Notes: generated by a model from the letters alone, not told the origin. A DNA stretch of 64,000 nt from an uncultured Alphaproteobacteria bacterium (GCA_934234055.1 CAKQGY010000003.1:21142-85141), one strand, 5' to 3'; shown: positions 7,158-55,698, counted from the first letter of the stretch. A program made the numbers and translations.

Positions 7158-8041
7158 AATAAAGTTTCGGGATCTATGCGGACACCATACCAGCTGAGCA
7201 CAAAATGCAGGTGTGGACCGGTGGAACGGCCGGTCGTGCCAATTCGGCCGATTGGGTCTCCTTGTTTAACCTGTTGATCTAACTTAACATTTATGTGACT
7301 GAGGTGCGAATAGGATGAAAAAACACCGGCACCGTGATCCAGCAAAATCGTCTGGCCAGTGTAAAATAAATCAGGATGCACAAAGGCAACGCGGCCGGCC
7401 GCCGGTGCCAGCACAAGAGTGCCCGTGGGGGCGGCATAGTCAGTTCCGCTATGTCCTTGTTTTTTAACATTATTCAGAATGCGGCGCGACCCGAAATGAC
7501 TGGAAATACGCTTGAAATCCGGGACGGGACGTTGAAATTTTGTCGGAAAAGCAGGGTAGTCAGAACGGGCGCGGGCGGCACGAATCTGTGCGGATTCGGT
7601 GGCGACTCGTTTCCGGTTTTCGGACGACAGGGACACGGTGGCCGACGGCAGGCCGGAGACATACTCTTCGTCCCAGGCGCGCGATTGAACCGGAAAATCC
7701 CGGGTTTTGGCACCGGTTGAGGTCTTAATCGTCAAGGATAATTTTGGAGCGTCCTGAGGGATGCCGATGACAAAACGACGGTCCTTTGTCGAGGGGATTT
7801 GAAATAAATTTTTACTTGTTTTTCCGTTGTTTAAATAAGAACTTTCAACAAAGACTTCTTCCCCGGGATCCAAGCGACCATAGGCCAGAGAACCCTCGGT
7901 CAACGGGGAGTCAAATGTTAAAGCAATACTTGAAGTGGAAAAAAACAAGAAAGATGTAATTACAATGTAATTATTTAGTGATTTTGTAATTATTTTGTAA
8001 TTACATTTTAATGAAGTATATACATTGTAATTACTTTTCAT
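7154..8041 (-). CDS. M23 family (LytM-type) peptidase
   Basis: HSGTDYAAP...GPHLHF M23 motifs. The N-terminal 30 codons are made of an AT-rich repeat array, so the true start is uncertain. Confidence 0.75.
   Translation of the reverse strand: MKSNYNVYTSLKCNYKIITKSLNNYIVITSFLFFSTSSIALTFDSPLTEGSLAYGRLDPGEEVFVESSYLNNGKTSKNLFQIPSTKDRRFVIGIPQDAPKLSLTIKTSTGAKTRDFPVQSRAWDEEYVSGLPSATVSLSSENRKRVATESAQIRAARARSDYPAFPTKFQRPVPDFKRISSHFGSRRILNNVKKQGHSGTDYAAPTGTLVLAPAAGRVAFVHPDLFYTGQTILLDHGAGVFSSYSHLSHINVKLDQQVKQGDPIGRIGTTGRSTGPHLHFVLSWYGVRIDPETLF
7943..8022. repeat. Array of five copies of the palindromic motif TGTAATTA(CA) in a pure-AT island
   Basis: Copies at 7943, 7954, 7973, 7984 and 8014. TGTAATTACA is self-complementary. 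Lies at the xseA stop / M23 start junction. Confidence 0.6.
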
Positions 8042-9650
8042 TGAATAAATCTCCTTGAAAATAGGGGGCCGGAGTGGGGTTGGGGTGAGAAACGGGGGCT
8101 GATTGGGGGAATTCCCGGGGTTGCGCGGGGTCGGAAATGGTGGCGGGATCGGGTTTTACGGGGGTGTCAGGGGTCCGGTCGGTGGCTGCCGGGGTGGATT
8201 CCCTAGGTTGTGCGGGGGTGAAGATGACGCCCGGGGTGGATTTTCGGGCTGGTATGGGGGCTGGAATGGCATTGGATATGGGCTTTTTGAGGGGGTCAGG
8301 GGCCTGTGCGGGTGTGTCGGCGTTGGTGGCTTTTCCGGTGGGGACAGAGGTTTGGGGGCTAGCCGTTGGGGCGGGGGAGGATACCTGAAAAGTTGGGGAC
8401 TGAGTGAAGGATAAATCAGGGGATTCGTGTTGTGTGTGGGGAGTGGTGGGAATCGCCTCTATTTGGCCGTCGGCAAAAGATAAAATCAGGCTTTTTTGGG
8501 CGGCCGCAACGGTAGATTGGCTGATGACTTGATGTGAGGGCGATGAAATCAGGGCAAATCCACGCTCTAAAATGGAATGATATGATAATGATTTCAATAA
8601 CTTAGCGCTTGTTTCAAAACGCACGTTGATTGAACGCCAATAAACGGAAAAGGCTTGATCCAGGCGTTCGGAACGGTCGTCCAGACGTTGTAAAAAGTTG
8701 TTGATGACTTCACCCAGATTCGGCAGGTTGAGCGAATCCAGTTTAAGTTTCTTGTCCGAGAGGGTGCGATAAAGGCTTTCGGTCAGGCGGAGAGTTTGAG
8801 TCTGTAAATGTGTGAGCAGGTCGCTGCGAACCGGAACGGCTTTTTCGGCGGCACCCGTCGGTGTGGGAGTCCGCAAGTCCGAGACATAATCTATCAGGGT
8901 GGTGTCGGTTTCGTGTCCGACAGCGGAAATAATCGGAATATCAGAGTGATAGACGGCGCGGACGACGGTTTCTTCGTTAAAACACCAAAGGTCCTCTAAA
9001 CTGCCACCGCCACGGGCAACAATCAGGACATCTGGACGCGGAATCAAGCCGTCGGGAGTGGATAAACCCGCAGGAGGAATGGCGTTAAAACCTTGAATAG
9101 CTTGAACAACCTGATCAGCGGCGCCGTCGCCTTGAACCAAAACGGGCCAGAGAAATACCGGGCGCGGAAAGCGGTCGCGCAACCGGTGCATAATATCGCG
9201 AATGACGGCGCCGGTGGGACTGGTAATCACGCCGATGGTCGCCGGTAAAAAGGGAATTTTTTTCTTGTGCGCGGGGTCAAAGAGCCCCTCTTTGGCCAGC
9301 TTTTCACGACGCTCGTTTAAGAGCTTTAAAAGGGCACCGATGCCGGCGGGCTCGGCCGATTCTATAATCATTTGGTAGTTGGAACGGCCGGGGTAGGTGG
9401 AGAGTTTGCCGGTGCAGACGACTTCCAGGCCCTCTTGCAGGACGGATGCCGCAGAACGGCCGCGCCAACAGATCGCCGAGAGAACGGAATCTTTGTCTTT
9501 GAGAGAAAAATAAGTGTGCCCCGATGCCACGGTTTTCAGGCCCGAGACTTCCCCACGTACGCGGACATGCGCAAAGACTTGCTCGACGCAGGATTTGAGA
9601 GAAAGCGATAACTCGGAGACCGATAAAATGGGTTGTTCTTGTGTTTCCAT
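8031..9650 (-). CDS. xseA: Exodeoxyribonuclease VII large subunit with a Pro-rich C-terminal tail of about 180 aa
   Basis: OB-fold plus catalytic region resembles XseA. Likely start METQEQPILSVSEL at 9650. The last ~180 aa are a low-complexity P/T/A/S-rich extension. Confidence 0.85.
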   Translation of the reverse strand: METQEQPILSVSELSLSLKSCVEQVFAHVRVRGEVSGLKTVASGHTYFSLKDKDSVLSAICWRGRSAASVLQEGLEVVCTGKLSTYPGRSNYQMIIESAEPAGIGALLKLLNERREKLAKEGLFDPAHKKKIPFLPATIGVITSPTGAVIRDIMHRLRDRFPRPVFLWPVLVQGDGAADQVVQAIQGFNAIPPAGLSTPDGLIPRPDVLIVARGGGSLEDLWCFNEETVVRAVYHSDIPIISAVGHETDTTLIDYVSDLRTPTPTGAAEKAVPVRSDLLTHLQTQTLRLTESLYRTLSDKKLKLDSLNLPNLGEVINNFLQRLDDRSERLDQAFSVYWRSINVRFETSAKLLKSLSYHSILERGFALISSPSHQVISQSTVAAAQKSLILSFADGQIEAIPTTPHTQHESPDLSFTQSPTFQVSSPAPTASPQTSVPTGKATNADTPAQAPDPLKKPISNAIPAPIPARKSTPGVIFTPAQPRESTPAATDRTPDTPVKPDPATISDPAQPREFPQSAPVSHPNPTPAPYFQGDLFNEK

Positions 9651-9879
9651 GGGGGTATTATAGCAGAAATACGGGGAAAAGAAAAGGGAAAAATGGAGCC
9701 TTGATGAGAGAGTGGCATATTGATTTGTGTGTTCAATGGATTCTTCGGGGGCAGGGAAGACCGCCCCCATCAGAATGGCAAGTTGATTTAGGTGTTTCAT
9801 GGATTGCCGCGAGGCCGAAGGGCCGGCCACTCGCAATGGCGGGGGCGGGAGCAATAGTAGGAAAGAAAAATAAAAAAAG

Positions 9880-12645: not shown

Positions 12646-14817
12646 ATGTCAAAACAAATGCTTATTGATGCGACGCACGCCGAAGAAACGCGCGTGGTCG
12701 TGCTGGACGAGGGGAGATTAGACGAGTTTGATGTTGATACCTCTACCAAAAAACAAATCAAAGGAAATATCTATTTAGCCAAAGTGGTGCGCGTGGAACC
12801 GTCGCTGCAAGCCGCGTTCGTGGAATACGGCGGCAATCGGCACGGATTCTTGGCCTTTGGGGAAATTCACCCGGACTATTACCAAATCCCGGTGGCCGAT
12901 CGCGAAGCCATTAAAGAACAAATGAAAGCCGAAGCCGCAGCCGAAAAAGCGGCGCGTGATTCGGAAGAAGAAACCGAAACCGAAGATCAGGAAGTGGAAA
13001 CTGTCAGTGATGCCGAAGCCGATGATATGATTCGGCACCGCTCGTCATTCTATCGGAAATACAAAATCCAGGAGGTTATTCGCCAGGGGCAGGTGATGCT
13101 GGTCCAAGTGGTCAAAGAAGAACGCGGCAATAAAGGCGCGGCACTGACGACCTATTTATCCTTGGCCGGCAGATACAGCGTTTTAATGCCGAACAACGGA
13201 AAAGGCGGCGGTGTTTCGCGTAAAATCAATAATGTGAAAGAACGCAAAAGCCTGCGTGAAATTGTGGAAAAACTGCCGATCCCGGAGGGTATGAGCGTGA
13301 TTATCCGCACCGCCGGACAGGGTAAAACCAAAGCCGAAATTAAACGGGACTTTGATTACCTGATTAAAACCTGGATGCAGATTCGTAAGGAAACACTGGC
13401 CTCTATTGCGCCGAAACTGATCCACGAAGAAGGCGATATTATTAAACGCTCGCTGCGGGATGTCTTTACGCCCGATATTGACGAAATTATCGTGGAAGGT
13501 GAAGATGTCTTTAAGACGACAAAGGCATTTATGAAAATCCTGATGCCGGCGCAGGTCAAGAAAATTAAACAATACAAAGGGGAACTGCCCTTGTTCCAAC
13601 AATATATGGTGGAAGCACAGCTGGAAGCTATTCACAGTAATATCGTGCAATTGCGTTCGGGCGGGTATCTGGTGATTGATCAGACAGAAGCCTTGGTTGC
13701 GGTGGATGTGAACTCGGGCCGGGCAACGCGCGAACATAATATTGAAGAAACCGCGCTGCGGACGAACCTGGAAACCTGTGATGAATTGGCGCGGCAGTTG
13801 CGACTGCGGGATATGGCGGGCCTGATTGTGATCGACTTTATTGATATGGACGAACAACGCAATAACGCCGCGGTGGAACGACGCTTGAAAGAGGCTTTGA
13901 AACGCGATCGGGCGCGGATCCAGGTTGGGAAAATCTCGGGCTTTGGGCTGATGGAAATGTCGCGGCAACGGTTGCATTCCAGCTTTTTGGAAAGCAGTTA
14001 TCATATTTGTCCGCATTGCGGCGGAAAGGGCTTGGTGCGCTCAACGGAATCGTGTGCGATGCATGCGCTGCACATCTTGGAAGAAGTGGCCGCCAAAAAT
14101 AAAGGCGCTACCTTGGTGATGAGCTTGCCCTTGGAAGTTGCGGGATATGTGCTGAATATGAAACGCGAAACGCTGGGCGACTTGGAAAAACGATTCGGAA
14201 TTAAAGTTCAAATCTTGGCTGACACAACATTGGTGAAAGCGTCGGACTTTAAGATGGAACGAATCCGCGAAAACGGCGACCGCTGTGCGGTGTCGGTGCA
14301 ACCGAACATGCCGCGCAGATCCGATCGGAACAACTCGAAAATGCAATCTATTGACGCAATTGTGCAGGCCTCTATCGCCGAAGAAGAAGCGGAAGAAGAA
14401 GCCGGCGGGCGACGCGGGCGGCGGCGTAAACATCGGCGGCGCGATTGGAACCGTAAACAAAAACAGCTGGCAGAGGGACAGGCAGAGATGAATGATGCCC
14501 GAGAGGCTGAGACGGGGGTGGCCGACGTCCGAGAGACGGCTGAAAAAAGTGAAGAAAATTTTACGGTGGTGGAGCAAACATCGCTGCAAAATGAAGACAA
14601 ACCCGCCGGGAAAAAAGGAAAATATCGCGATCGCGGGCGGCGGCGTCGGGGACAAAAATCGACGGATAAGGCTTTGGTCCCGGCGCAGGTGTCGGCTCCG
14701 GCAGTGCGGGAAGAAAATGTGCCCGTCAAGGCCGAAATGCACCCGGTTCCGGTGGCGACAGATGAAGCCCCTAAATCAGCCAAAAAAGGCGGTTGGTGGA
14801 ATCGCTTGATGGGGTAA
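12646..14817 (+). CDS. rne: Ribonuclease E
   Basis: S1 domain, DNase I-like catalytic domain, Zn-link CPHCGG, then an Arg/Glu-rich C-terminal scaffold. Confidence 0.9.
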   Translation: MSKQMLIDATHAEETRVVVLDEGRLDEFDVDTSTKKQIKGNIYLAKVVRVEPSLQAAFVEYGGNRHGFLAFGEIHPDYYQIPVADREAIKEQMKAEAAAEKAARDSEEETETEDQEVETVSDAEADDMIRHRSSFYRKYKIQEVIRQGQVMLVQVVKEERGNKGAALTTYLSLAGRYSVLMPNNGKGGGVSRKINNVKERKSLREIVEKLPIPEGMSVIIRTAGQGKTKAEIKRDFDYLIKTWMQIRKETLASIAPKLIHEEGDIIKRSLRDVFTPDIDEIIVEGEDVFKTTKAFMKILMPAQVKKIKQYKGELPLFQQYMVEAQLEAIHSNIVQLRSGGYLVIDQTEALVAVDVNSGRATREHNIEETALRTNLETCDELARQLRLRDMAGLIVIDFIDMDEQRNNAAVERRLKEALKRDRARIQVGKISGFGLMEMSRQRLHSSFLESSYHICPHCGGKGLVRSTESCAMHALHILEEVAAKNKGATLVMSLPLEVAGYVLNMKRETLGDLEKRFGIKVQILADTTLVKASDFKMERIRENGDRCAVSVQPNMPRRSDRNNSKMQSIDAIVQASIAEEEAEEEAGGRRGRRRKHRRRDWNRKQKQLAEGQAEMNDAREAETGVADVRETAEKSEENFTVVEQTSLQNEDKPAGKKGKYRDRGRRRRGQKSTDKALVPAQVSAPAVREENVPVKAEMHPVPVATDEAPKSAKKGGWWNRLMG

Positions 14818-14833
14818 GACCCGGAAAAAATGG

Positions 14834-14868
14834 AAGCACCCCTTGGGAAACCGGGGGTGCTTTTTTGT
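14834..14868 (+). terminator. Rho-independent terminator of rne
   Basis: AGCACCCC...GGGGTGCT stem followed by TTTTTTGTG. Confidence 0.7.
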
Positions 14869-14869
14869 G

Positions 14870-14898
14870 TTGACAGGGGGATTCTTTTGGGCTAAAAT
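14870..14898 (+). promoter_or_regulatory. Near-consensus sigma70 promoter (TTGACA-N17-TAAAAT) driving the pilin-like gene leader
   Basis: Exact -35, 17-bp spacer, TAAAAT -10. Would give a ~190-nt 5' UTR that contains the conserved block and the CA tract. Confidence 0.5.
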
Positions 14899-14962
14899 GA
14901 GGGCTATGATAAAGCAAAAATGTAGTCAGATTGGGGTCAATTTTAAGGGGTGCGAATCGCGT

Positions 14963-15012
<50 letters not shown>

Positions 15013-15096
15013 GTTCTGGTGAGAAGAAAAATTTAAGCAGTCGGTTGCCGGGTGGCGACCGGCTGTATCTGTCTATAACCGAAAAGGAGAAATAAG

Positions 15097-17010
15097 ATGA
15101 ATACAAAGAAATCATATTTAGTGGATTGCCACGCCCCACAAGGGGGGCCCGCAATGACGGCGGGGAGCGAATCTGGTCGCACTTTGACCGAGATGCTGGG
15201 TGTGTTGGCGATTATGGGTGTGTTGACCATTGGCGGGATAGCCGGGTTTAACTGGGCGATGGACCGGTGGCGAGCGAATCGGATTATTGACGGGGTGGAA
15301 GAGCGAGCCTTGGTCGGGAGCCGGTTGCGCCTGTCCGGTATGAATAGGACAATGGAAATAGCAGATGCAGTGGTGGCTCAAACCGGGGGAACGATAGAGG
15401 ACTATGCCACGACGGTGAGTAATACGGGCTATAACGATGAGAAGACTTATTTTTCGGTGCAGGTAGCCGGAGTATCGCCGCAGGTGTGTGAGAATGTGAT
15501 GAACCTGAACTGGCAGTTGCCGGTGGAAGTGTATGCGGGGAATACCCAATATACGGGTGATACGGCGATTTGTGCCGGAGAGGGGACAGTGGATTTGACT
15601 TTTGTGTTTGCGGCGGATTTGATTACGAAGAAAGATGTGAAGGTGGTGGATCGGAACAATCCGACCTGTCAGCCGACACAGGTTTGGACCTGTAAGACGA
15701 ATGACGCCAACGGCTATAAATGCTGCACGGCGGGTATGTTGTGCAAGGCGGAGGAGGATACACTGCCGACAGGAGTGTTTTCAGAGAACAAGGGGAACTG
15801 TCCGCGCGGGACGCATCAGTGCCGGAATAATCAGTGCGTATGTCGCAAAAGTTGCCCGGCCGGCTATGAACAAGATCCAAAAACATGCGCATGCAGTTCT
15901 CAAACATGTGAAACCGGTGTTTGGAACGAAGCCAAAGGCGAATGCGTAGAATGTAATGAAGATACGGACTGTGCCACTCGCACCGACGGCAAGACAACCT
16001 GCGATACAGCGAGTAATGTGTGCAAGTGTCCGGCAGGTAAGGTTCCGAATGCCGACGGGACGGCTTGTGTGGAATGTAAAACAAACGCGGATTGTAAAAA
16101 TGCCTACAAGCCCGTCTGTAATACGGCGAATAACACTTGTGTGGGATGTACCGAAGATGCGGATTGCGCGGGAAATAGAATATGCAACACGGCAAATAAT
16201 ACTTGTAAATGCCCGGCTATGGGCACGAAGCCAACGGCCACTTGCTATACGGCCACGGAGCATGCGGCGACAGAGCAATGCCTGGCCTACACGACATATG
16301 AGCCTCTGATTTGCCCAGAACCTAAAACGGAATGCGATGTTGCCAACAACACTTGCAAGTGCCCGGATTGTCCGGCCGAGAAAATGACGCAAAATGAGGA
16401 TACCTGTGAGTGTATTTGTAATAATAACAAAGTGCTGAATGCAACTGGAACAAGATGTGTGGGGTGTAATACAGATGCTGATTGTGCCTGGCGCACAGAT
16501 GGAAGGACGAGGTGTGGTGTAAATTCCCACACTTGTGCATATGTAACATGTAGAAGCAATTCAGATTGTGCAGCGGGTCAATATTGTTCTATAGGGCCAA
16601 ATGATTGCAAAGATGGCACTTCTGGGGCGTGTAAAGAATTGGGAGAACGGATAGAGTTTGAAAATTATAATTTGCTATATTCTTCTGGTAATAGTGATAT
16701 GAACTGGATGTCGGCTGGGAACTGGTGTCAGGCCAATGGTAAAAAACTCGTTAGTGTAGATACATTGGTCAAAATTGCAGGGAGACCAACTTCTGAGTGG
16801 CACATAGCCGAGTATCAAGATGAACTTCACAGTGCATTTTACAAAGTCTTTGGAAATACAGATTTAGGCTTTTGGACTGACCAAGACTGTATGGGTTGCC
16901 TTGGCAGTCCTACCTGCCGTGCTGCGCTCTTAGGTTCTATTAATGCTACTGATGTTAGTTGGGTGACCTTTAATGATTGGCGTAATAAAATTAGAGCATT
17001 ATGTGAGTAG
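15097..17010 (+). CDS. Modular type IV pilin-like protein: class III signal + pilin head + Cys-rich repeats + C-type-lectin-like C-terminal module
   Basis: AAGGAG SD 8 nt upstream. N-terminus ...SESG|RTLTEMLGVLAIMGVLTIGGIAGFNWAM closely follows the G|FTLIELMIVVAIIGILAAIA pilin motif (Glu at +5). About 60 Cys in CxxC..DxDC..C.C repeats. C-terminus NWMSAGNWCQANGKKLVS...FWTDQDC resembles a CTLD. Confidence 0.6.
   Translation: MNTKKSYLVDCHAPQGGPAMTAGSESGRTLTEMLGVLAIMGVLTIGGIAGFNWAMDRWRANRIIDGVEERALVGSRLRLSGMNRTMEIADAVVAQTGGTIEDYATTVSNTGYNDEKTYFSVQVAGVSPQVCENVMNLNWQLPVEVYAGNTQYTGDTAICAGEGTVDLTFVFAADLITKKDVKVVDRNNPTCQPTQVWTCKTNDANGYKCCTAGMLCKAEEDTLPTGVFSENKGNCPRGTHQCRNNQCVCRKSCPAGYEQDPKTCACSSQTCETGVWNEAKGECVECNEDTDCATRTDGKTTCDTASNVCKCPAGKVPNADGTACVECKTNADCKNAYKPVCNTANNTCVGCTEDADCAGNRICNTANNTCKCPAMGTKPTATCYTATEHAATEQCLAYTTYEPLICPEPKTECDVANNTCKCPDCPAEKMTQNEDTCECICNNNKVLNATGTRCVGCNTDADCAWRTDGRTRCGVNSHTCAYVTCRSNSDCAAGQYCSIGPNDCKDGTSGACKELGERIEFENYNLLYSSGNSDMNWMSAGNWCQANGKKLVSVDTLVKIAGRPTSEWHIAEYQDELHSAFYKVFGNTDLGFWTDQDCMGCLGSPTCRAALLGSINATDVSWVTFNDWRNKIRALCE
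15124..15159 (+). repeat. Stem-loop element GATTGCCACG-(CCCCACAAGGGGGG)-CCCGCAATGACG inside the leader-peptide coding region
   Basis: One of at least four copies with conserved flanks and compensatory stem changes. Contains an in-frame ATG. Confidence 0.7.
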
Positions 17011-17031
17011 CAAAAGGATTATTTGTTTCTA

Positions 17032-17069
17032 GATTGCCACGCGCCCCGTGTGGGGCGCTCGCAATGACG
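17032..17069 (+). repeat. Copy of the GATTGCCACG...CGCAATGAC stem-loop plus a truncated pilin-gene 5' fragment
   Basis: GATTGCCACGCGCCCCGTGTGGGGCGCTCGCAATGACG with a 7-bp GCGCCCC/GGGGCGC stem. Upstream context TATTTGTTTCTAGATTGCC mirrors gene 1's TATTTAGTGGATTGCC. The reading frame stops after MTMRN. Confidence 0.7.
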
Positions 17070-17226
17070 ATGAGGAATTAGGTGATTCTGGATTCTTCGG
17101 GGGACAAGGGCCCAATTCCACCTAAGCCTTGAACGGCGTGCGCGGGGCGGACTTGTTCAAGGCAAAGGTTCATTGCTTTGCGCACTCGGACCGGCCACCG
17201 GCAGGTCCTCGCTTACGCAGTCCTTC

Positions 17227-17237
17227 GCAATGACGGG
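17227..17237 (+). repeat. Partial copy (3' half only, CGCAATGACGG) of the stem-loop element
   Basis: Exact match to the 3' flank. The 5' half is not recognisable. Confidence 0.35.
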
Positions 17238-17315
17238 GAGGAGGGATGGTTAGAGGTAGGTCCGAGGGTGCGCAGTGTAATGACAGGAGAGTGCGACGGT
17301 GGAGCGGAGGGAAGG

Positions 17316-17771
17316 CTATTTGAGGCGTTTGGATTGGAAAAAGGTGGTGAGCAGGGCGCCGCAGAGGTCGGCGTGAATGCCGCCTTGGACCGGAATCTTG
17401 TGGTGCGTTTGCGGGTGGGTGAAAACAGCGGGACCTTGACAGACGGCGCCGGTCTTGGGATCATAGGCTCCGAAATACAGGGCATCCAATCTGGCCCACG
17501 CAATCGCGCCCGCGCACATTGTGCAGGGCTCGGCCGTGACGAATAACGAATAACCCGTCAGCCTTTTCTGTCCCGTCAATTCACAAGCCCGGTGAATCGC
17601 CAGAATCTCGGCATGCGCCAAAGGATCGTGGCGGGCTTCGGTCTCGTTATGCGCCCGGGCAATGATAGCACCGGTGGTGCTGTCAAAAATGATGGCCCCG
17701 ATCGGGACTTCGTCGGCAGCAGCTGCGGATTGTGCCAGTTCGTAAGCGCGATTAAAAATGGTTTCATTCAT
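17316..17771 (-). CDS. tadA: tRNA-specific adenosine deaminase
   Basis: HAEILAI...PCTMCAGAI zinc-binding deaminase motifs. Confidence 0.85.
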   Translation of the reverse strand: MNETIFNRAYELAQSAAAADEVPIGAIIFDSTTGAIIARAHNETEARHDPLAHAEILAIHRACELTGQKRLTGYSLFVTAEPCTMCAGAIAWARLDALYFGAYDPKTGAVCQGPAVFTHPQTHHKIPVQGGIHADLCGALLTTFFQSKRLK

Positions 17772-17815
17772 CTTTTTGCTTTCCTTTTGGTTTGTTTTGT
17801 TATAATATACTATTT

Positions 17816-18529
17816 ATGACAGAAAAGAAAGAGCGAATTGCAAAAATAATGGCAGCGGCGGGGCTGTGCTCACGGCGGGAGGCCGAAAAACGGATTGAAC
17901 AAGGGCGCGTGGTCGTGAACGGCGAGACCCTGAAAACACCGGCGTGCGTGGTGGGCCCGGGGGATACGGTGCTGGTGGACGGAAAACCCCTGGGGCAAAA
18001 GCAGGCGCGGCGGCTGTGGTGCTATCATAAACCCGCGGGCTGTATTACGACAAATCGCGATCCTCAAGGGCGCAAAACAATCTTTGAACAACTGCCGCCC
18101 ACGCTGCCGCGTGTGGTGACGGTGGGACGGTTGGACTTTAACTCGGAGGGGTTGCTGCTGTTGACGACGGACGGGGGATTGGCACGGGAACTGGAACTGC
18201 CGGCGCGGGGGTGGAAACGCAAATACCGCGTGCGCGTGCATGGCAAAATCACAGCGGAAATCGTGGGGCGCCTGAACAAAGGAGTCAAAATTGACGGCGT
18301 GGCCTATGCGCCCTGTCAGATTGAAGTGGAGCGTGAACAGGGGACGAATACTTGGGTGCTGATGACCCTGACGGAAGGGAAAAATCGCGAAATTCGCAAA
18401 ATGATGGCGTTTTTCGGACTGCCGGTGACGCGCTTGATCCGCGTGTCATATGGGCCGTTCCAGCTGGGGAATCTGCCGCCCGGGGAAGTGCGCGAAATAC
18501 CGCCCAAGACTTTGCAGGGGCTGATATGA
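17816..18529 (+). CDS. rRNA pseudouridine synthase (RsuA/RluB family) with N-terminal S4 domain
   Basis: S4 motif RIAKIMAAAGLCSRREAEKRIEQGRVVVNG and catalytic GRLDFNSEGLLLLT. Confidence 0.8.
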   Translation: MTEKKERIAKIMAAAGLCSRREAEKRIEQGRVVVNGETLKTPACVVGPGDTVLVDGKPLGQKQARRLWCYHKPAGCITTNRDPQGRKTIFEQLPPTLPRVVTVGRLDFNSEGLLLLTTDGGLARELELPARGWKRKYRVRVHGKITAEIVGRLNKGVKIDGVAYAPCQIEVEREQGTNTWVLMTLTEGKNREIRKMMAFFGLPVTRLIRVSYGPFQLGNLPPGEVREIPPKTLQGLI

Positions 18530-47364: not shown

Positions 47365-49548
47365 TCAGGTTTTGTTTTCTTCGTCCAACTCCACAATATC
47401 GCCTTGCACCATTGCTTTCAGGGCGGACATATCCGCTTCTTCACGCTGGGCCACAATCCAATACGGCACAAACGGCGCGGTTTTAAGAGCACACTTTTTG
47501 CGCATCTTCTTGTCCAAATACCACCGGGGCGCATCGGCCAAAATCGGGCGGTTTAAAAAGCCCTGGAACAAGACATATTGCTTTAACATATCCAAGCTCA
47601 TCATATCCGAGGCACCCACCACACTGGAACTTTGCAGCGACCGCGACACATTCGCCGCGAACGGGTTGGTCTGCATAGAGACCCCCTCGGTGCGCGAAGA
47701 ACTGGCCACTTCAATCGTGCGCGACCCGATCATCTTGGAGAATCGCTCGGCGGTTTGTTCGTTGTTCTGAGCCAGAATGACTTTGGCAGCCGTTGTCGTA
47801 ATAATCGTTTCCAAGTCGTCCTTACCATACTGCCCCGAGATCTGCCCCAAATCCTGTCCGATCAGCAGGTAAGACACCTTTTGTCCCCGCCCGACAGCCG
47901 GCCCGTCCTTGACCGCCGCCAGTTTCGGCATTTGCGGGAATTCATCCAGCACGAATAACACCGGGTAGGGGCCGACTTTGACCCCGTCGGCGGCAATATC
48001 ATTCGGCTTGTTGGAAATCAGGTAAGAACTCATCAATTCCACAAACACGCCGGTAATCACATTCAAGGTTTTGGCATCCACCTGATTGACCGACAGGTAA
48101 ACGGTGATCGGCTTCATTTCGCCTGTCACGGGATCCACCATACCGCGCAAGTCCTTAAATGTAATATCGCTGAACTTGGTGCGGGCGCGCACGGCCGAGT
48201 TTTTGAAAATGTTGATTCCGGTAAAGGCAGTGGATAAAATAGATCCCCGCTCTTTATCGGGCGTGCCGGCCAACTGACTCAGTTCAACCACCGCCCGGCG
48301 GGAATAGCCGAAACGCTCGGCCTCGGCAATCGCGATTTTCAAGGCATCACCCTGCGCATCGGCAAATGCGGCGGCCTGATCGCCCTCGTCCTGCCGGCGT
48401 TTGAGGTCGGCATTGACACGCATTTGTATGTCGGTCCACCAGTCAAAAATCATCGCGATGCAGGGTTCGTTGCCTTGCCAACTTTCGGGCAGACTTTCCC
48501 AAGTTCCCACCGGCGCATAATTTTCGGTCGTCAGCGTCCCGCCCTTTAAGGCCTCCAACGCAATCCGTGCGCTGGGGTCCGTCATATCCATATAATAGGT
48601 TTCCAGCACCTCGGCATCGTCCTTGTCAAACGATCCTTCACTCAGCTTTGCCAGAAAATAGTCGTTTGCCCGGGCGCGCTCACACTTGCTGCAAATAAAG
48701 TGTAAAAAGCCCGACATGGCGTTTCGGCCGGTTTTGGACCAGTGCGGATCTGCGCCGCCTTTTGGCTCCTCTACCAATACAGCAACCATTGAGTCAATAT
48801 ACATATCCCGCGACGGACCCAGTGGCGGCAAACAACTGGCCGACAGAGGGTTCCAGCTGGGGTAGTAGGTTCCCTTGGCCGGGTCATCTTCCGCCCCCCA
48901 GTTGATTACGAACACGGGCCCCTGCGTCGCCCGATAGCCCGAGGTATTATAGCACAATTCCGGCTTGGGGTCGTTGACAATCAGGCTCAGCCCCGGTGAC
49001 TCTAAAATCGTCGGAATCACGACGCCCGCGGTTTTACCGGTTCCCGGAGGCGCCACCACCAACGCCGATAAAGTTTCCGGCATTTTCAACAGCTTGCCCT
49101 TAAACCGCCCCAGCACAATCACAAACCCGTCAAACAGCTTCATTTTTTTGACATCTTCATAGGTTGCCTTGCGCCCGCCGCCAAACACATTCGGCGTGTA
49201 TTTATAGGGGTTTGTGACAATCCGATAGATAAAGAAAGTGAACGCAATCACAAACGATAAATAGGGCAAATACAACACGGGTGATCCCGACCGATCCATA
49301 CGGGCCAACTGCCGATAACTTTGGAACTTGTCCCACAGAACCGTCGGCTTCCAGCCTCGAATCCAGAAATGCCACGCTTTGGACAGCTCGTCAATGCTTA
49401 AACCGTTAAAGAACCACTGCGTCATCGGTATGAACAGCAGCAGCAACAGCCACGCAATCACCAGCGTAAAAAAGATGCTCCATAAAATGCGGGCAACAAA
49501 TTTTACCTGTTCGTCATAAGCCTCATCTCGTTTGAATGCCATAATCAA
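47365..49548 (-). CDS. virD4: Type IV secretion coupling protein (VirD4/TraG family ATPase)
   Basis: Two N-terminal TM helices. Walker A VVAPPGTGKTAGVVIPT (compare VirD4 LVVAPTRSGKGVGVVIP). Walker B LFVLDEFPQMPKL. Confidence 0.8.
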   Translation of the reverse strand: MIMAFKRDEAYDEQVKFVARILWSIFFTLVIAWLLLLLFIPMTQWFFNGLSIDELSKAWHFWIRGWKPTVLWDKFQSYRQLARMDRSGSPVLYLPYLSFVIAFTFFIYRIVTNPYKYTPNVFGGGRKATYEDVKKMKLFDGFVIVLGRFKGKLLKMPETLSALVVAPPGTGKTAGVVIPTILESPGLSLIVNDPKPELCYNTSGYRATQGPVFVINWGAEDDPAKGTYYPSWNPLSASCLPPLGPSRDMYIDSMVAVLVEEPKGGADPHWSKTGRNAMSGFLHFICSKCERARANDYFLAKLSEGSFDKDDAEVLETYYMDMTDPSARIALEALKGGTLTTENYAPVGTWESLPESWQGNEPCIAMIFDWWTDIQMRVNADLKRRQDEGDQAAAFADAQGDALKIAIAEAERFGYSRRAVVELSQLAGTPDKERGSILSTAFTGINIFKNSAVRARTKFSDITFKDLRGMVDPVTGEMKPITVYLSVNQVDAKTLNVITGVFVELMSSYLISNKPNDIAADGVKVGPYPVLFVLDEFPQMPKLAAVKDGPAVGRGQKVSYLLIGQDLGQISGQYGKDDLETIITTTAAKVILAQNNEQTAERFSKMIGSRTIEVASSSRTEGVSMQTNPFAANVSRSLQSSSVVGASDMMSLDMLKQYVLFQGFLNRPILADAPRWYLDKKMRKKCALKTAPFVPYWIVAQREEADMSALKAMVQGDIVELDEENKT

Positions 49549-53943: not shown

Positions 53944-53986
53944 ACCCTCTTTCGGTTTTGTCTCCCAAAAATTACCCACCCCCGTT

Positions 53987-54023
53987 GTTATTGCGAGCGC
54001 CCCATCCGGGACGCGTGGCAATC
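53987..54023 (-). repeat. Copy of the GATTGCCACG...CGCAATxAC stem-loop element (minus orientation)
   Basis: Reverse complement reads GATTGCCACGCGTCCCGGATGGGGCGCTCGCAATAAC. Confidence 0.6.
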
Positions 54024-54054
54024 CACGAATCACATAATGCCTTATATTTTCCGC

Positions 54055-54083: not shown

Positions 54084-54147
54084 AGGGGACATGACGATAC
54101 AAAAGTGTAGACATTTTCCGGTTCAAAAAGAGGGGCTTGACATGCCT

Positions 54148-54173
54148 AAAACCCTTATAGTACTACACACACA
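54148..54173 (+). repeat. Conserved leader block AAAACCCTTATAGTACTA followed by (CA)4
   Basis: Identical block to 14963-14980. The CA tract is 20 bp shorter than in the paralog. Confidence 0.9.
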
Positions 54174-54316
54174 TCTAATTGCTGATGAGCAGAAAATTTC
54201 AGTCAGTCGGTCGGTCGCCTGCGGGCAGGGACGACCGGTTGCTGGCGTATACGAACGGTGGACGACCGAAAGGTGGTCTGCCGTTTGAAATTATTCAAAA
54301 CGAAAAGGAGACAACT

Positions 54317-55687
54317 ATGAAAACAAAACACATCAATTCAATATGTCATTCTGAGCGGGCCTTGTGCACTGAAGAATCCATAATCAAGGATTCATTATTA
54401 AATGGATTGCCACGTCCCACAAGTGGGCTCGCAATGACGCCCGGGAACGAATCCGGCCGGTCTCTGGTGGAAATGCTGGGGGTCTTGGCCGTCATGGGTA
54501 TCCTGACGATCGGCGGAATAGCCGGGTTTAATTACGCCATGGATAGATCCAAAGCCAACGATATTTTGGACGGCGTGAACAAGCGCGCAATCGCCTTGTC
54601 GTCTTACCTGATGCTGGGAACGAACATTTCGGCCACGACCCTGGACGCCGAGTTTTCCAACCATATCGGTGATGCGACGGTGGCTTTAAGCCCTGCCGGC
54701 TCGGGGTTCAAAATGACGGTCTCGGGCCTGACGGACTCCGTGTGCGACCAAGTCCTGACCAACGGCCTGAAAATGGCGTCCGAGATTACATTGGGCGAGA
54801 CCAAAATCTGGGACCGGGGCGTCAAGTCCGATCACACCTGCGCCGACAGCGATAACACGATTTCTTTTTCATTTAACGCTGCACTAAACGGCGCTCAGTC
54901 CGCCACCAATGATACCCCCGCGGGGCCCAACGCAGGCACCTGCACCGGGAACGGCGGAACATGGAACGCGGATACAGGTTCGTGCACTTGCCCGGGTCGC
55001 TACACGGGCGTAAATTGTGAAGTCGCCCCGACCGCCTGCCCCGAGGGCGCCACCCCCACCGCCGACGGAAAGTGTCAGATGTGTAAACCAGGAAATGAGG
55101 ATTGTGCTACCTGTGAAGTGACGGAAGAATTTGCTTGTTTTAGTGAGTGTAAGTGTGTAAAACCAGGTAGCGAGTGTACTGATGTATGTTCTCTTGGTTG
55201 GGCAGACACCGTCGCCTGTGTAAATGGAAAATGTGTCTGCGATAATGCAAATGCTGTTTGGGTGACAGAATTTGGGGATGAAGGGCTGACTTTTGGGGAA
55301 TGTGTGATTCCCACCGAAGAACACCAATGCTTTACAAATAAGGATTGCGGGCAGAGTGAATACTGTGATGTTACAATGGAAAGACGCTCTTGCCAAGCAT
55401 TACCGGCTATGACCGAACAAGGCGGGGTTTTGGTCAGCCAAGAGCCCGTGAATTACTATGCGGCTCAAAATATATGCGAGGGTTATGGTAAAAGGCTTCC
55501 GAGTACTTCTACATATGACTTCGGCAAAGCACTTGAAAAATCAAATGGCGAGCCCTTTTGGGTGAAAGGTGGACGAATGGGGGTTTGCCCAGATGCAGAT
55601 GCAAATAATTGTAAGGATGTAGACGAAGAAATGGAAATCTATAATGGCCTTGGAGATGGCAAACATCATACATTGATTTGTATTTAA
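54317..55687 (+). CDS. Modular type IV pilin-like protein paralog: long leader + pilin head + EGF-like/Cys-rich region + lectin-like C-terminal module
   Basis: AAGGAG SD. ...NESG|RSLVEMLGVLAVMGILTIGGIAGFNYAM is near-identical to gene 1. EGF-like CTCPGRYTGVNCE. C-terminus NYYAAQNICEGYGKRLPS...FWVKGG is the shared lectin-like signature. Confidence 0.6.
   Translation: MKTKHINSICHSERALCTEESIIKDSLLNGLPRPTSGLAMTPGNESGRSLVEMLGVLAVMGILTIGGIAGFNYAMDRSKANDILDGVNKRAIALSSYLMLGTNISATTLDAEFSNHIGDATVALSPAGSGFKMTVSGLTDSVCDQVLTNGLKMASEITLGETKIWDRGVKSDHTCADSDNTISFSFNAALNGAQSATNDTPAGPNAGTCTGNGGTWNADTGSCTCPGRYTGVNCEVAPTACPEGATPTADGKCQMCKPGNEDCATCEVTEEFACFSECKCVKPGSECTDVCSLGWADTVACVNGKCVCDNANAVWVTEFGDEGLTFGECVIPTEEHQCFTNKDCGQSEYCDVTMERRSCQALPAMTEQGGVLVSQEPVNYYAAQNICEGYGKRLPSTSTYDFGKALEKSNGEPFWVKGGRMGVCPDADANNCKDVDEEMEIYNGLGDGKHHTLICI
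54405..54439 (+). repeat. Stem-loop element GATTGCCACG-(TCCCACAAGTGGGCT)-CGCAATGACG inside the leader coding region
   Basis: Same flanks as 15124-15159, read in a different codon frame. Inner stem CCCAC/GTGGG. Confidence 0.7.
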
Positions 55688-55689
55688 TT

Positions 55690-55698
55690 CCCCCCCCC
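55690..55698 (+). repeat. C9 homopolymer tract 2 nt after the stop codon of the pilin-like gene
   Basis: TAA-TT-CCCCCCCCC, read directly. Confidence 0.9.

Follow-up and report, generated by a model that had tools for sequence, protein, structure and literature searches.

Short palindromic repeats have been described in bacterial genomes in several forms. Repetitive extragenic palindromic (REP) sequences and bacterial interspersed mosaic elements (BIMEs) of Enterobacteria and Pseudomonas are imperfect palindromes of 30-40 nt, arranged in mosaic clusters in both orientations within intergenic DNA, especially between convergent genes, and their REPIN forms (REP doublets forming hairpins) are moved by RAYT transposases (REP-associated tyrosine transposases). 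Rickettsia palindromic elements (RPEs), of about 100-150 bp and known only from Rickettsia, are tolerated in frame within genes as well as in spacers. In Neisseria, short repeats such as the Sma/Cla repeat and the Correia elements flank the pil loci of the mosaic, strain-variable pilin family (pilE/pilS), and the attC sites of integrons combine conserved termini with a hairpin that is kept in structure and free in sequence, at the 3' end of accessory genes. Here, we analyzed a 64,000-nt stretch (hereafter, the window) from an uncultured Alphaproteobacteria bacterium of the gut (GCA_934234055.1 CAKQGY010000003.1:21142-85141), and in particular its positions 17011-17315. According to the listing of open reading frames (ORFs), this segment is preceded by a pilin-like gene on the plus strand, gene 1 (15097-17010, 637 aa, stop codon TAG at 17008-17010), and followed by a tadA-like deaminase gene on the minus strand (17316-17771; Pfam MafB19-deam, 4e-31, and dCMP_cyt_deam_1, 4e-24); since both genes are convergent, the 305-nt region is a 3'-3' spacer. 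An initial annotation had interpreted the spacer as the truncated 5' fragment of a pilin-like gene and as a possible silent or partial cassette. Our findings indicate that it is very probably an array of short, non-coding, hairpin-forming interspersed repeats, and not a silent cassette, at a recombination-prone locus of a pilin-like adhesin.

Directly after the stop codon of gene 1 the sequence continues as ...GGATTATTTGTTTCTAGATTGCCACGCGCCCCGTGTGGGGCGCTCGCAATGACGATGAGGAATTAG, and a complete repeat unit, here called type A, occupies positions 17014-17075 of the plus strand with an arm (17014-17030), a core (17031-17068) and a tail up to 17075. The core contains a perfect GC stem of 7 bp (17041-17047 paired with 17052-17058), lengthened by ATTGC and GCAAT; its folding free energy (dG, positions 17032-17068) is -20.6, and it is an exact match to a pattern that recurs across phyla, as described below. 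Type A units are built of an AT-rich arm of about 20 nt (rough consensus AAGGATTATnTGATTCnTGG), a core formed by ATTGCCACG, a GC-rich hairpin and C(T)CGCAATGAC, and a short G-rich tail, and the sister units of type B have the termini GGATTCTTC...CAGAATGAC. As the initial annotation had stated, a sequence resembling the start of gene 1 does follow its stop codon: within the window, BLAST aligned the start region 15087-15166 to 16994-17076 with 69% identity over 84 nt (E = 1.6e-4). This resemblance exists because gene 1 carries another type A unit in the part that encodes its leader peptide (15101-15166, plus strand; AT-rich arm, core GGATTGCCACG-CCCCACAAGGGGGG-CCCGCAATGAC with a dG of -14.9, and G-rich tail), which is in frame and encodes ..KKSYLVDCHAPQGGPAMTAGS. 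The similarity between units is limited to the repeat of about 60 nt, with the core GGATTGCCACG, GC hairpin and CTCGCAATGAC. The five codons followed by a stop were also read correctly (ATG ACG ATG AGG AAT TAG), and they consist of the conserved right terminus of the repeat, CGCAATGACG, followed by chance sequence.

The proposed truncated pilin fragment did not hold, since the best match of 17014-17075 in a BLAST search of the spacer against the window is an intergenic type A unit located upstream of the promoter region of the paralogous gene 2 (53980-54043, minus strand; 81% identity over 64 nt, E 1e-9; dG -17.8), and a third match falls in the leader region of gene 2 (54386-54439, E 4e-4). 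In addition, no pilin-specific coding sequence was detected in 17011-17315 in a tblastn search with 36 family proteins (gene 1, gene 2 and 34 homologues), which matched only repeat-encoded leader peptides with E-values no better than about 0.003, as for example KKSYL-VDCHAPQGG against QKDYLFLDCHAPRVG or the ICHCERP of protein P0010, and never a mature protein. By blastn, the spacer did not match any gene body in the window.

The BLAST searches and a pattern scan together revealed at least five type A and three type B units in the window, on both strands and at three sites. The leader-coding region of gene 2 (54341-54442, plus strand) holds a reversed type B unit (54345-54379) and a type A unit (54384-54442), and a tandem of type B and type A is present in the spacer between xseA and dus, where there is no pilin gene (9716-9840, plus strand; in the pattern scan, pair 9738-9840 with the B unit at 9738-9779). 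The terminus CGCAATGACG occurs four times in the window (15150, 17060, 17226 and 54430) against 0.40 expected, a count reached by 0 of 100 shuffled sequences; therefore, the further half-element that had been reported in the spacer, at 17226-17235, is real.

Repeat-derived sequence fills approximately 17014-17284 of the 305-nt spacer. Next to the complete type A unit lies a truncated B/A chimera (17076-17119, plus strand), in which an arm and a type B left half, GGATTCTTCGGGGGACAAGGGCC (truncated B, 17090-17112), are fused to an A-like right end, CCAATTCC; its counterparts in the alignments are the type B unit in the leader of gene 2 (54357-54395, minus strand) and the B unit found downstream of the P0008 gene in locus L137 (hereafter, L numbers denote the loci compared and P numbers the family proteins). 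It is followed by a hairpin with arms of 15 nt, ACCTAAGCCTTGAAC-N20-GTTCAAGGCAAAGGT (17120-17169, plus strand; arms 17120-17134 and 17155-17169). The palindrome CCTTGAAC-N20-GTTCAAGG, previously placed at about 17118-17153, exists and is located at 17127-17162. A long A-like unit, TCATTGC...(GCAATGAC or GTAATGAC), occupies 17170-17284 on the plus strand and has its right half twice, at 17205-17234 and 17258-17284. The first right terminus is CGCAATGAC at 17226-17234, and the second, duplicated right half (17242-17284, plus strand) consists of GGTCCGAGGGTGCGCAGTGTAATGAC and a G-rich spacer, with the inverted repeats I3 and I4 pairing 17170-17192 with 17259-17283. The hairpin, the left part of the long unit and its first right terminus belong to a composite dispersed repeat (17113-17241, plus strand; inverted repeats I2, I3, I4 and I10), which matches a second locus in a conspecific sample (L137, 7207-7082, minus strand) with 93% identity over 131 nt and is 98.5% identical in L004. 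With the duplicated right half the composite measures about 170 nt (17113-17284); both right halves are present in the window, only the second in L129, and only the first in L004 and L137. The spacer folds more stably than shuffled sequences (z = -3.3 on each strand). No Rfam family was found at a permissive E-value in 14700-17900, and the promoter and terminator scan detected neither a promoter nor a canonical intrinsic terminator in 17011-17315.

Two other candidate identities were considered and dismissed. The stem at 17033-17068 resembles a type I-C repeat of clustered regularly interspaced short palindromic repeats (CRISPR); this was dismissed because the stems of other copies are unrelated to it and no array of that kind exists. 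A G-quadruplex such as that near Neisseria pilE was rejected on direct reading, as the G-rich tails (for example, 17236-17250) contain just two runs of three or more G.

The comparison of strains showed that this locus is not static. Conspecific loci were located by exact-protein look-ups in samples from 10 other assemblies, and the DNA flanking the locus is 97-99.8% identical among them. Together with the window, the interval from gene 1 (or its remnant) to tadA displays seven configurations, so that the cross-strain comparison proposed in the initial annotation did not find an identical and static locus. Configuration I (window, L001 and L140) has the 305-nt spacer. In configuration II (L004 and L142) the spacer has 203 nt, window positions 15956-17111 are replaced by unrelated sequence, a swap that covers the 3' half of the gene, the type A unit and the B half (the first 100 nt or so of the spacer), and 17243-17286 is missing. 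In configuration III, L141 and L143 have the gene allele of the window with a spacer of 71 nt, in which just the arm and GATTGCCAC are left, joined to ...GAC/GGGAGAGGG (here and below, a slash marks the junction), and configuration IV (L145) has the junction ...CGCAATGAC/GACAGAATGAGG. In configurations V to VII (L129, L130 and L131) the coding body is absent, and the promoter, a CA tract, the 5' untranslated region (UTR) and a 3' remnant are kept; their junctions, CAGCAGGAC/GGGGAGGAGGG and GCAACGAC/AGGGAGGAGGG, sit at the position of the repeat terminus ...AATGAC/GG. At window position 17112, the right part is the same in three strains but is joined to a different left half in each. The breakpoints within the spacer (GATTGCCAC/, ...AATGAC/GG and the junction at 17112) coincide with repeat termini or hairpin apexes.

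Variation extends into gene 1 itself. L133-L135 carry a different gene allele, whose leader holds a type B unit. Breaks inside the repeated N-terminal module interrupt their contigs, and such breaks occur in several assemblies. The leader units of the window and L004 have identical termini and unrelated hairpin interiors. The mature N-terminal module (15168-16078) begins exactly at the ESGR codons and has 93-95% nucleotide identity to genes in two other chromosomal contexts (L002, 4025-4934, and L003, 4048-4913). Its sliding-window identity is mosaic, with some segments of the window nearer to genes at other loci than to the orthologous allele of L004, which suggests gene conversion or recombination among paralogues or alleles. 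In sample ERZ15610549, a gene 1-type allele and the P0008 paralogue were both found, on contigs of similar coverage. The initial annotation had proposed recombination-based exchange at this locus, and this part is supported by the swap of the 3' half, the deletion of the gene body in three strains, the seven configurations and the mosaic module; the proposed route through a stored pilin fragment is not, for the exchange runs through generic repeats and the gene body. No conversion tract derived from the fragment was observed: the L004 swap replaces 15956-17111 as a whole, and L141 and L143 have the same allele without most of the fragment.

The same behavior was found at the other two sites. 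Depending on the strain, the xseA-dus spacer contains a B and an A unit (window), a single hybrid unit (L131), a single B unit (L133), or the B and A units plus an insertion of 930 nt (L127, region 7900-8960). This insertion carries a gene for a 208-aa lipoprotein with its own promoter and has two more A units at its end, and direct repeats of TCGCAATGRCGG enclose it. In L146, gene 2 is a shorter allele with a single forward B unit in its leader. In L148-L151 (8760-8830), about 400 nt upstream of gene 2 are absent, comprising the promoter region, CA tract, UTR, Shine-Dalgarno (SD) sequence, ATG and leader, and a hybrid palindrome, GTTATTGCGATCGCCCCACAAGGGGGCTCGCAATGAC, joins the reverse A copy of the intergenic region to the A copy of the leader at the hairpin apex. 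The intact gene 2 ORF of these loci starts at the ATG of the repeat (MTPVNESGRS...), as do the homologues P0020 and P0021.

The repeat core is not limited to this species. For a scan of reference genomes, the pattern was defined by the left terminus (G)GATTGCCACG, the right terminus C(T)CGCAATGAC and a gap of 8-24 nt, and at least 120 genome stretches (L005-L124, contig stretches of up to 8 kb each) contained the exact form GATTGCCACG-N8-24-CGCAATGAC. Among the matches listed, hosts include Alphaproteobacteria (Rickettsiales among them), Neisseriaceae, the candidate phyla radiation (CPR), Chloroflexota, Firmicutes, Oscillospiraceae, Bacteroidota, Planctomycetota, Atribacterota and other groups, and there are 126 distinct cores in which the 10-nt termini are identical across phyla, the stems are free to vary and every interior is different. 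The interiors of the 126 cores fold much better than shuffled ones (mean dG -10.7 vs -6.8), with 40% of them at -12 kcal/mol or below as compared with 6% after shuffling, and many of the listed copies adjoin related copies of the form GTCATTGCGAG...GAAGCAATC. The repeat was characterized by regular expressions, BLAST and folding statistics; MAFFT-based alignment was unhelpful owing to the variable stem lengths. When ORFs of at least 100 aa from the 120 listed loci were clustered, no recurrent transposase-like ORF was found, and the ORFs recurring near the listed cores belong to housekeeping families only, such as UvrA-like ABC ATPases. In a plasmid collection, the commonest core occurs in 10 records (Methylocystis, Methylosinus, Novosphingobium, Legionella and others), none of which carries an annotation where the core matches. 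Literature searches with the DNA strings GTCATTGCGA, TCGCAATGAC, CATTGCGAG and CTCGCAATG and with repeat-encoded peptide strings returned no paper on the repeat, only primers and irrelevant papers. The core appears to be without a name, an Rfam model and annotation; such sequences are also met as spurious small ORFs of the '...DCHVA..LLAMT...' kind.

Compared with the systems mentioned above, the array shares with REP sequences and BIMEs the imperfect palindromes of 20-40 nt clustered in spacers, the mosaic arrangement in both orientations between convergent genes, the coincidence with recombination or deletion hot spots and a possible role as stabilizers of mRNA 3' ends. In contrast, the GTAG-type 5' tetranucleotide is absent on direct reading of all local and 140 cross-phylum copies, whose termini are GGATTGCC...GCAATGAC; REP sequences are lineage-specific, whereas the same termini are found here in many phyla; and some of the units described here are inside the leader region of an ORF. 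A RAYT gene was not found within the stretches around the 120 listed copies. As regards miniature inverted-repeat transposable elements (MITEs), which are defined by terminal inverted repeats with a target-site duplication and by a related autonomous insertion sequence, the ends of the units are inverted-repeat-like, and no partner transposase was found at the 120 listed loci. Like the RPEs, with which the comparison is by description only, the units are palindromic, occur in Alphaproteobacteria and are tolerated both in frame and in spacers, but they measure 35-60 nt and their in-frame copies are in leaders that are presumably removed by prepilin processing. The Neisseria pilE/pilS system also has a mosaic, strain-variable surface gene of the pilin family with short repeats flanking it. 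In our case, however, there is no silent coding cassette in the window and no pilin sequence in the fragment, the variable part is a large, non-pilin, adhesin-like C-terminal region, and the repeats are generic and not pil-specific. Finally, the units resemble integron attC sites in their conserved termini, in a hairpin of kept structure and free sequence, in their position at the 3' end of accessory genes and in one insertion bounded by unit termini; they differ in their termini (GGATTGCC...GCAATGAC), which on direct reading are no match for the RYYYAAC/GTTRRRY boxes, in the absence of an array architecture, and in junctions that can be explained by microhomology-mediated deletion.

These comparisons bear on how else the spacer could be explained. 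A silent or partial cassette that stores the 5' portion of the pilin gene for antigenic variation by gene conversion, as pilS does for pilE in Neisseria, would agree with the likeness of 17014-17075 to the start of gene 1, with the mosaic and strain-variable gene family, and with units at both ends of family genes, which are loosely like a conserved recombination repeat. We nevertheless regard it as extremely unlikely, because the spacer contains no pilin-specific sequence and the similarity is that of a generic dispersed repeat, present also at xseA-dus, at the flanks of the L127 lipoprotein gene and in many phyla; moreover, it is the C-terminal half that varies and no silent copy of it exists in the window, and in L141 and L143 most of the fragment is gone, with no change in the gene 1 ORF. 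A related view is that the A unit and B half (17014-17119) are the dead 5' fragment of another pilin-like gene, once in tandem with gene 1, that has lost its body. Arrays of A and B units are indeed found in the leaders of the family (gene 2, L133, L146 and P0008), the order arm-A-arm-B can be aligned with the leader region of gene 2 (69% over 77 nt), and deletions of the body that leave 5' and 3' remnants have occurred at this very locus (L129-L131). Such a relic is quite improbable, though, given that no promoter, SD/ATG context or ESGR codons accompany the array, that the same arrays also follow another family gene (L137) and occur between xseA and dus, and that none of the strains examined has a tandem second gene; this history is not needed to explain the array.

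Recombination could also be site-specific, with the hairpin units as attC- or Sma/Cla-like sites at which a putative recombinase inserts, excises or swaps accessory surface-protein genes or segments. The junctions recur at the same nucleotide (...AATGAC/GG in four configurations, 17112 in three, and the apex fusion at gene 2), the accessory lipoprotein gene of L127 is bounded by unit termini, and the termini are invariant with stems free to vary, as in attC sites. On the other hand, microhomology- or hairpin-stimulated deletion between units explains all junctions equally well, the termini depart from the attC R-box consensus on direct reading, the allele swap has its 5' breakpoint at about 15955, within the gene and not at a unit, and no integrase or recombinase was found near the units when the ORFs of the listed loci were clustered, although no search was aimed at integrases. 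This makes such a mechanism very unlikely; in a broader form, hairpin units could be crossover sites for the exchange of surface-adhesin cassettes, and the identical cross-phylum termini would then point to an undescribed conserved trans-acting enzyme or host factor, which we consider improbable. More plausible, yet still doubtful, is that the hairpins are kept above all for a function of their structure in RNA or DNA, namely to terminate the gene 1 and tadA transcripts from both sides or to stabilize the 3' ends of these mRNAs, their repeat nature being secondary. REP/BIME elements in E. coli are known as structures of the terminator or mRNA 3' stabilizer type, and a function of this kind would be in line with a convergent spacer devoid of a canonical terminator and with the strong folding of both strands. 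However, L141 and L143 keep the same gene with a 71-nt spacer and almost no hairpin; therefore, the array is dispensable. This possibility and the explanation of the spacer as a repeat array are not mutually exclusive.

We therefore favor the array of interspersed repeats, and propose how it could have arisen. Since no transposase was found among the ORFs of the listed loci, the units would behave as non-autonomous elements, spreading or being exchanged from one copy to another. Microhomology and stalling structures would be provided by the hairpins and conserved termini of the units, and these in turn would promote deletion, duplication and the formation of chimeras; slippage between short direct repeats is known to be stimulated by palindromes. 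In this way, the units would gather at the borders of surface-protein genes that vary between strains, and would contribute to forming these borders. As RNA, the stacked hairpins would probably be 3'-end protectors or terminator substitutes for both convergent transcripts. Some observations weigh against this interpretation. The loosest pattern is only modestly enriched in the window (4 matches vs 1.15 expected), and the species is covered by 64 kb and a handful of loci. Furthermore, the units are conspicuously tied to one gene family, as repeat-derived leader peptides are found in homologues of several species and units also flank the 3' ends of family genes; in view of this association, a family-specific role in regulation or recombination may exist.

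Gene 1 encodes an N-terminal module similar to type IVb pilins (mature start ESG/RTLTEMLGVLAIMGVL), followed by a middle part rich in Cys and a C-terminal half that varies between strains. The prepilin motif is ESG/RTLTE (G/x4E), and a profile of the N-terminal 170 residues or so of 16 family members matched TcpA (8uhf, E 0.004) and Salmonella PilS (1q5f, E 0.0042) in the PDB, with a weak TIGR02532 match in 5 of the 16 members. In the AlphaFold2 (AF2) model of the product (predicted local distance difference test, pLDDT, 73), a long alpha-1 helix at residues 7-55 is followed by a sheet, and Foldseek aligned this model to TcpA, CofA and PilS with a probability of 1.0 and template modeling (TM) scores of 0.5-0.58, so that, as predicted by the model, the N-terminal module is pilin-like in fold. 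It shares with TcpA, CofA and PilS the G/xxxxE processing motif, the long hydrophobic alpha-1 helix and the alpha/beta fold, and differs from these type IVb pilins in having Arg at +1 and a Cys-rich, strain-variable extension with no Pfam match. Large minor type IVb pilins, the TcpB- and CofB-like tip proteins, have a long leader and a large C-terminal extension, as gene 1 does. Among the gene 1 homologues, residues 1 to about 300 are 84-92% identical and the C-termini are unrelated. The C-terminal region of gene 1 (about 16650-17007), P0002 and P0004 have a W..A...C...GK.L.S motif (NWMSAGNWCQANGKKLVSV, WWSARNWCLAHGKNLASL) without a Pfam hit, a region that is somewhat reminiscent of C-type-lectin-like domains. 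Pilus machinery genes were not recognized in the window, although no systematic check was made.

A canonical SD and ATG (AAAGGAG-N7-ATG at 15097) form one candidate start of gene 1, and the type A unit lies in frame between this ATG and the mature start; the ATG of the repeat itself (15154), preceded by AAGGGGGG, is a second in-frame candidate. The leader that carries the unit is presumably removed by prepilin processing. The mature start of the family, ESG/R(T/S)(L/M)(T/V)EMLGVLAI, is kept, and the family sequence is conserved only from ESG/R... onwards; the leaders of P0001-P0034 range from 5 to more than 80 residues as called and are often made of palindromic-repeat peptides (LVDCH..AMT, ICHCERP, SLRGAKRR, SFPRRRESR). 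The 5' ends of these genes are therefore places where such elements repeatedly land or are retained. Gene 2 (54317-55687) is 43% identical to gene 1 over 148 N-terminal residues, which bears out the 5' module that the initial annotation had assigned to both paralogs; a shared 3' module is not borne out, as the C-terminal match is not significant (E = 0.13).

Other features were observed around these genes. Genes 1 and 2 share 5' non-coding blocks (14960-15096 and 54145-54316) despite their coding identity of 43%: TAAAACCCTTATAGTACTACACACAC; ..AGAAAATTT.AG.CAGTCGGT.. with a GC hairpin; and CGAAAAGGAGA before the ATG. The shared block is still present in strains without the gene 1 body. The 5' region of gene 1 includes a perfect (CA)14 tract (14981-15008), which comes just after TATAGT and about 85 nt after a strong promoter-like TTGACA-17-TAAAAT (14870-14898); the tract has 14, 10 or 4 units depending on the strain, with (CATA)n instead in one of them, and the corresponding tract upstream of gene 2 (54166-54173) is (CA)4 in the window and about 16 units long in L146. 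The CA tract could be a phase-variation or contingency repeat. A C9 homopolymer (55690-55698) directly follows the gene 2 stop codon, and L003 has a tract of C12-13 upstream of a family gene. At 47365-49548 (minus strand), an ORF of 725-727 aa corresponds in L146 and L147 to the families T4SS-DNA_transf, TrwB_AAD_bind and TraG-D_C (coupling proteins of type IV secretion systems, T4SS), and the ORFs on either side lack Pfam hits; it is possibly what remains of a conjugative system or T4SS, with no apparent relation to the repeat.

From these results, no pilS-like store for antigenic variation should be inferred at this locus, where a repeat unit had been mistaken for a gene fragment. The kind of feature is ordinary, an interspersed palindromic repeat array, and its neighborhood is the interesting part: Cys-rich, adhesin-like genes fused to a type IVb pilin module form a hypervariable family, with alleles that differ between strains by swaps, truncations or deletions, and hairpin repeats in the leaders and flanks coincide with the breakpoints. 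The repeat itself is strikingly widespread and apparently unnamed, and a systematic description of it could account for many spurious small ORFs of the type mentioned above and might reveal its mode of spread.

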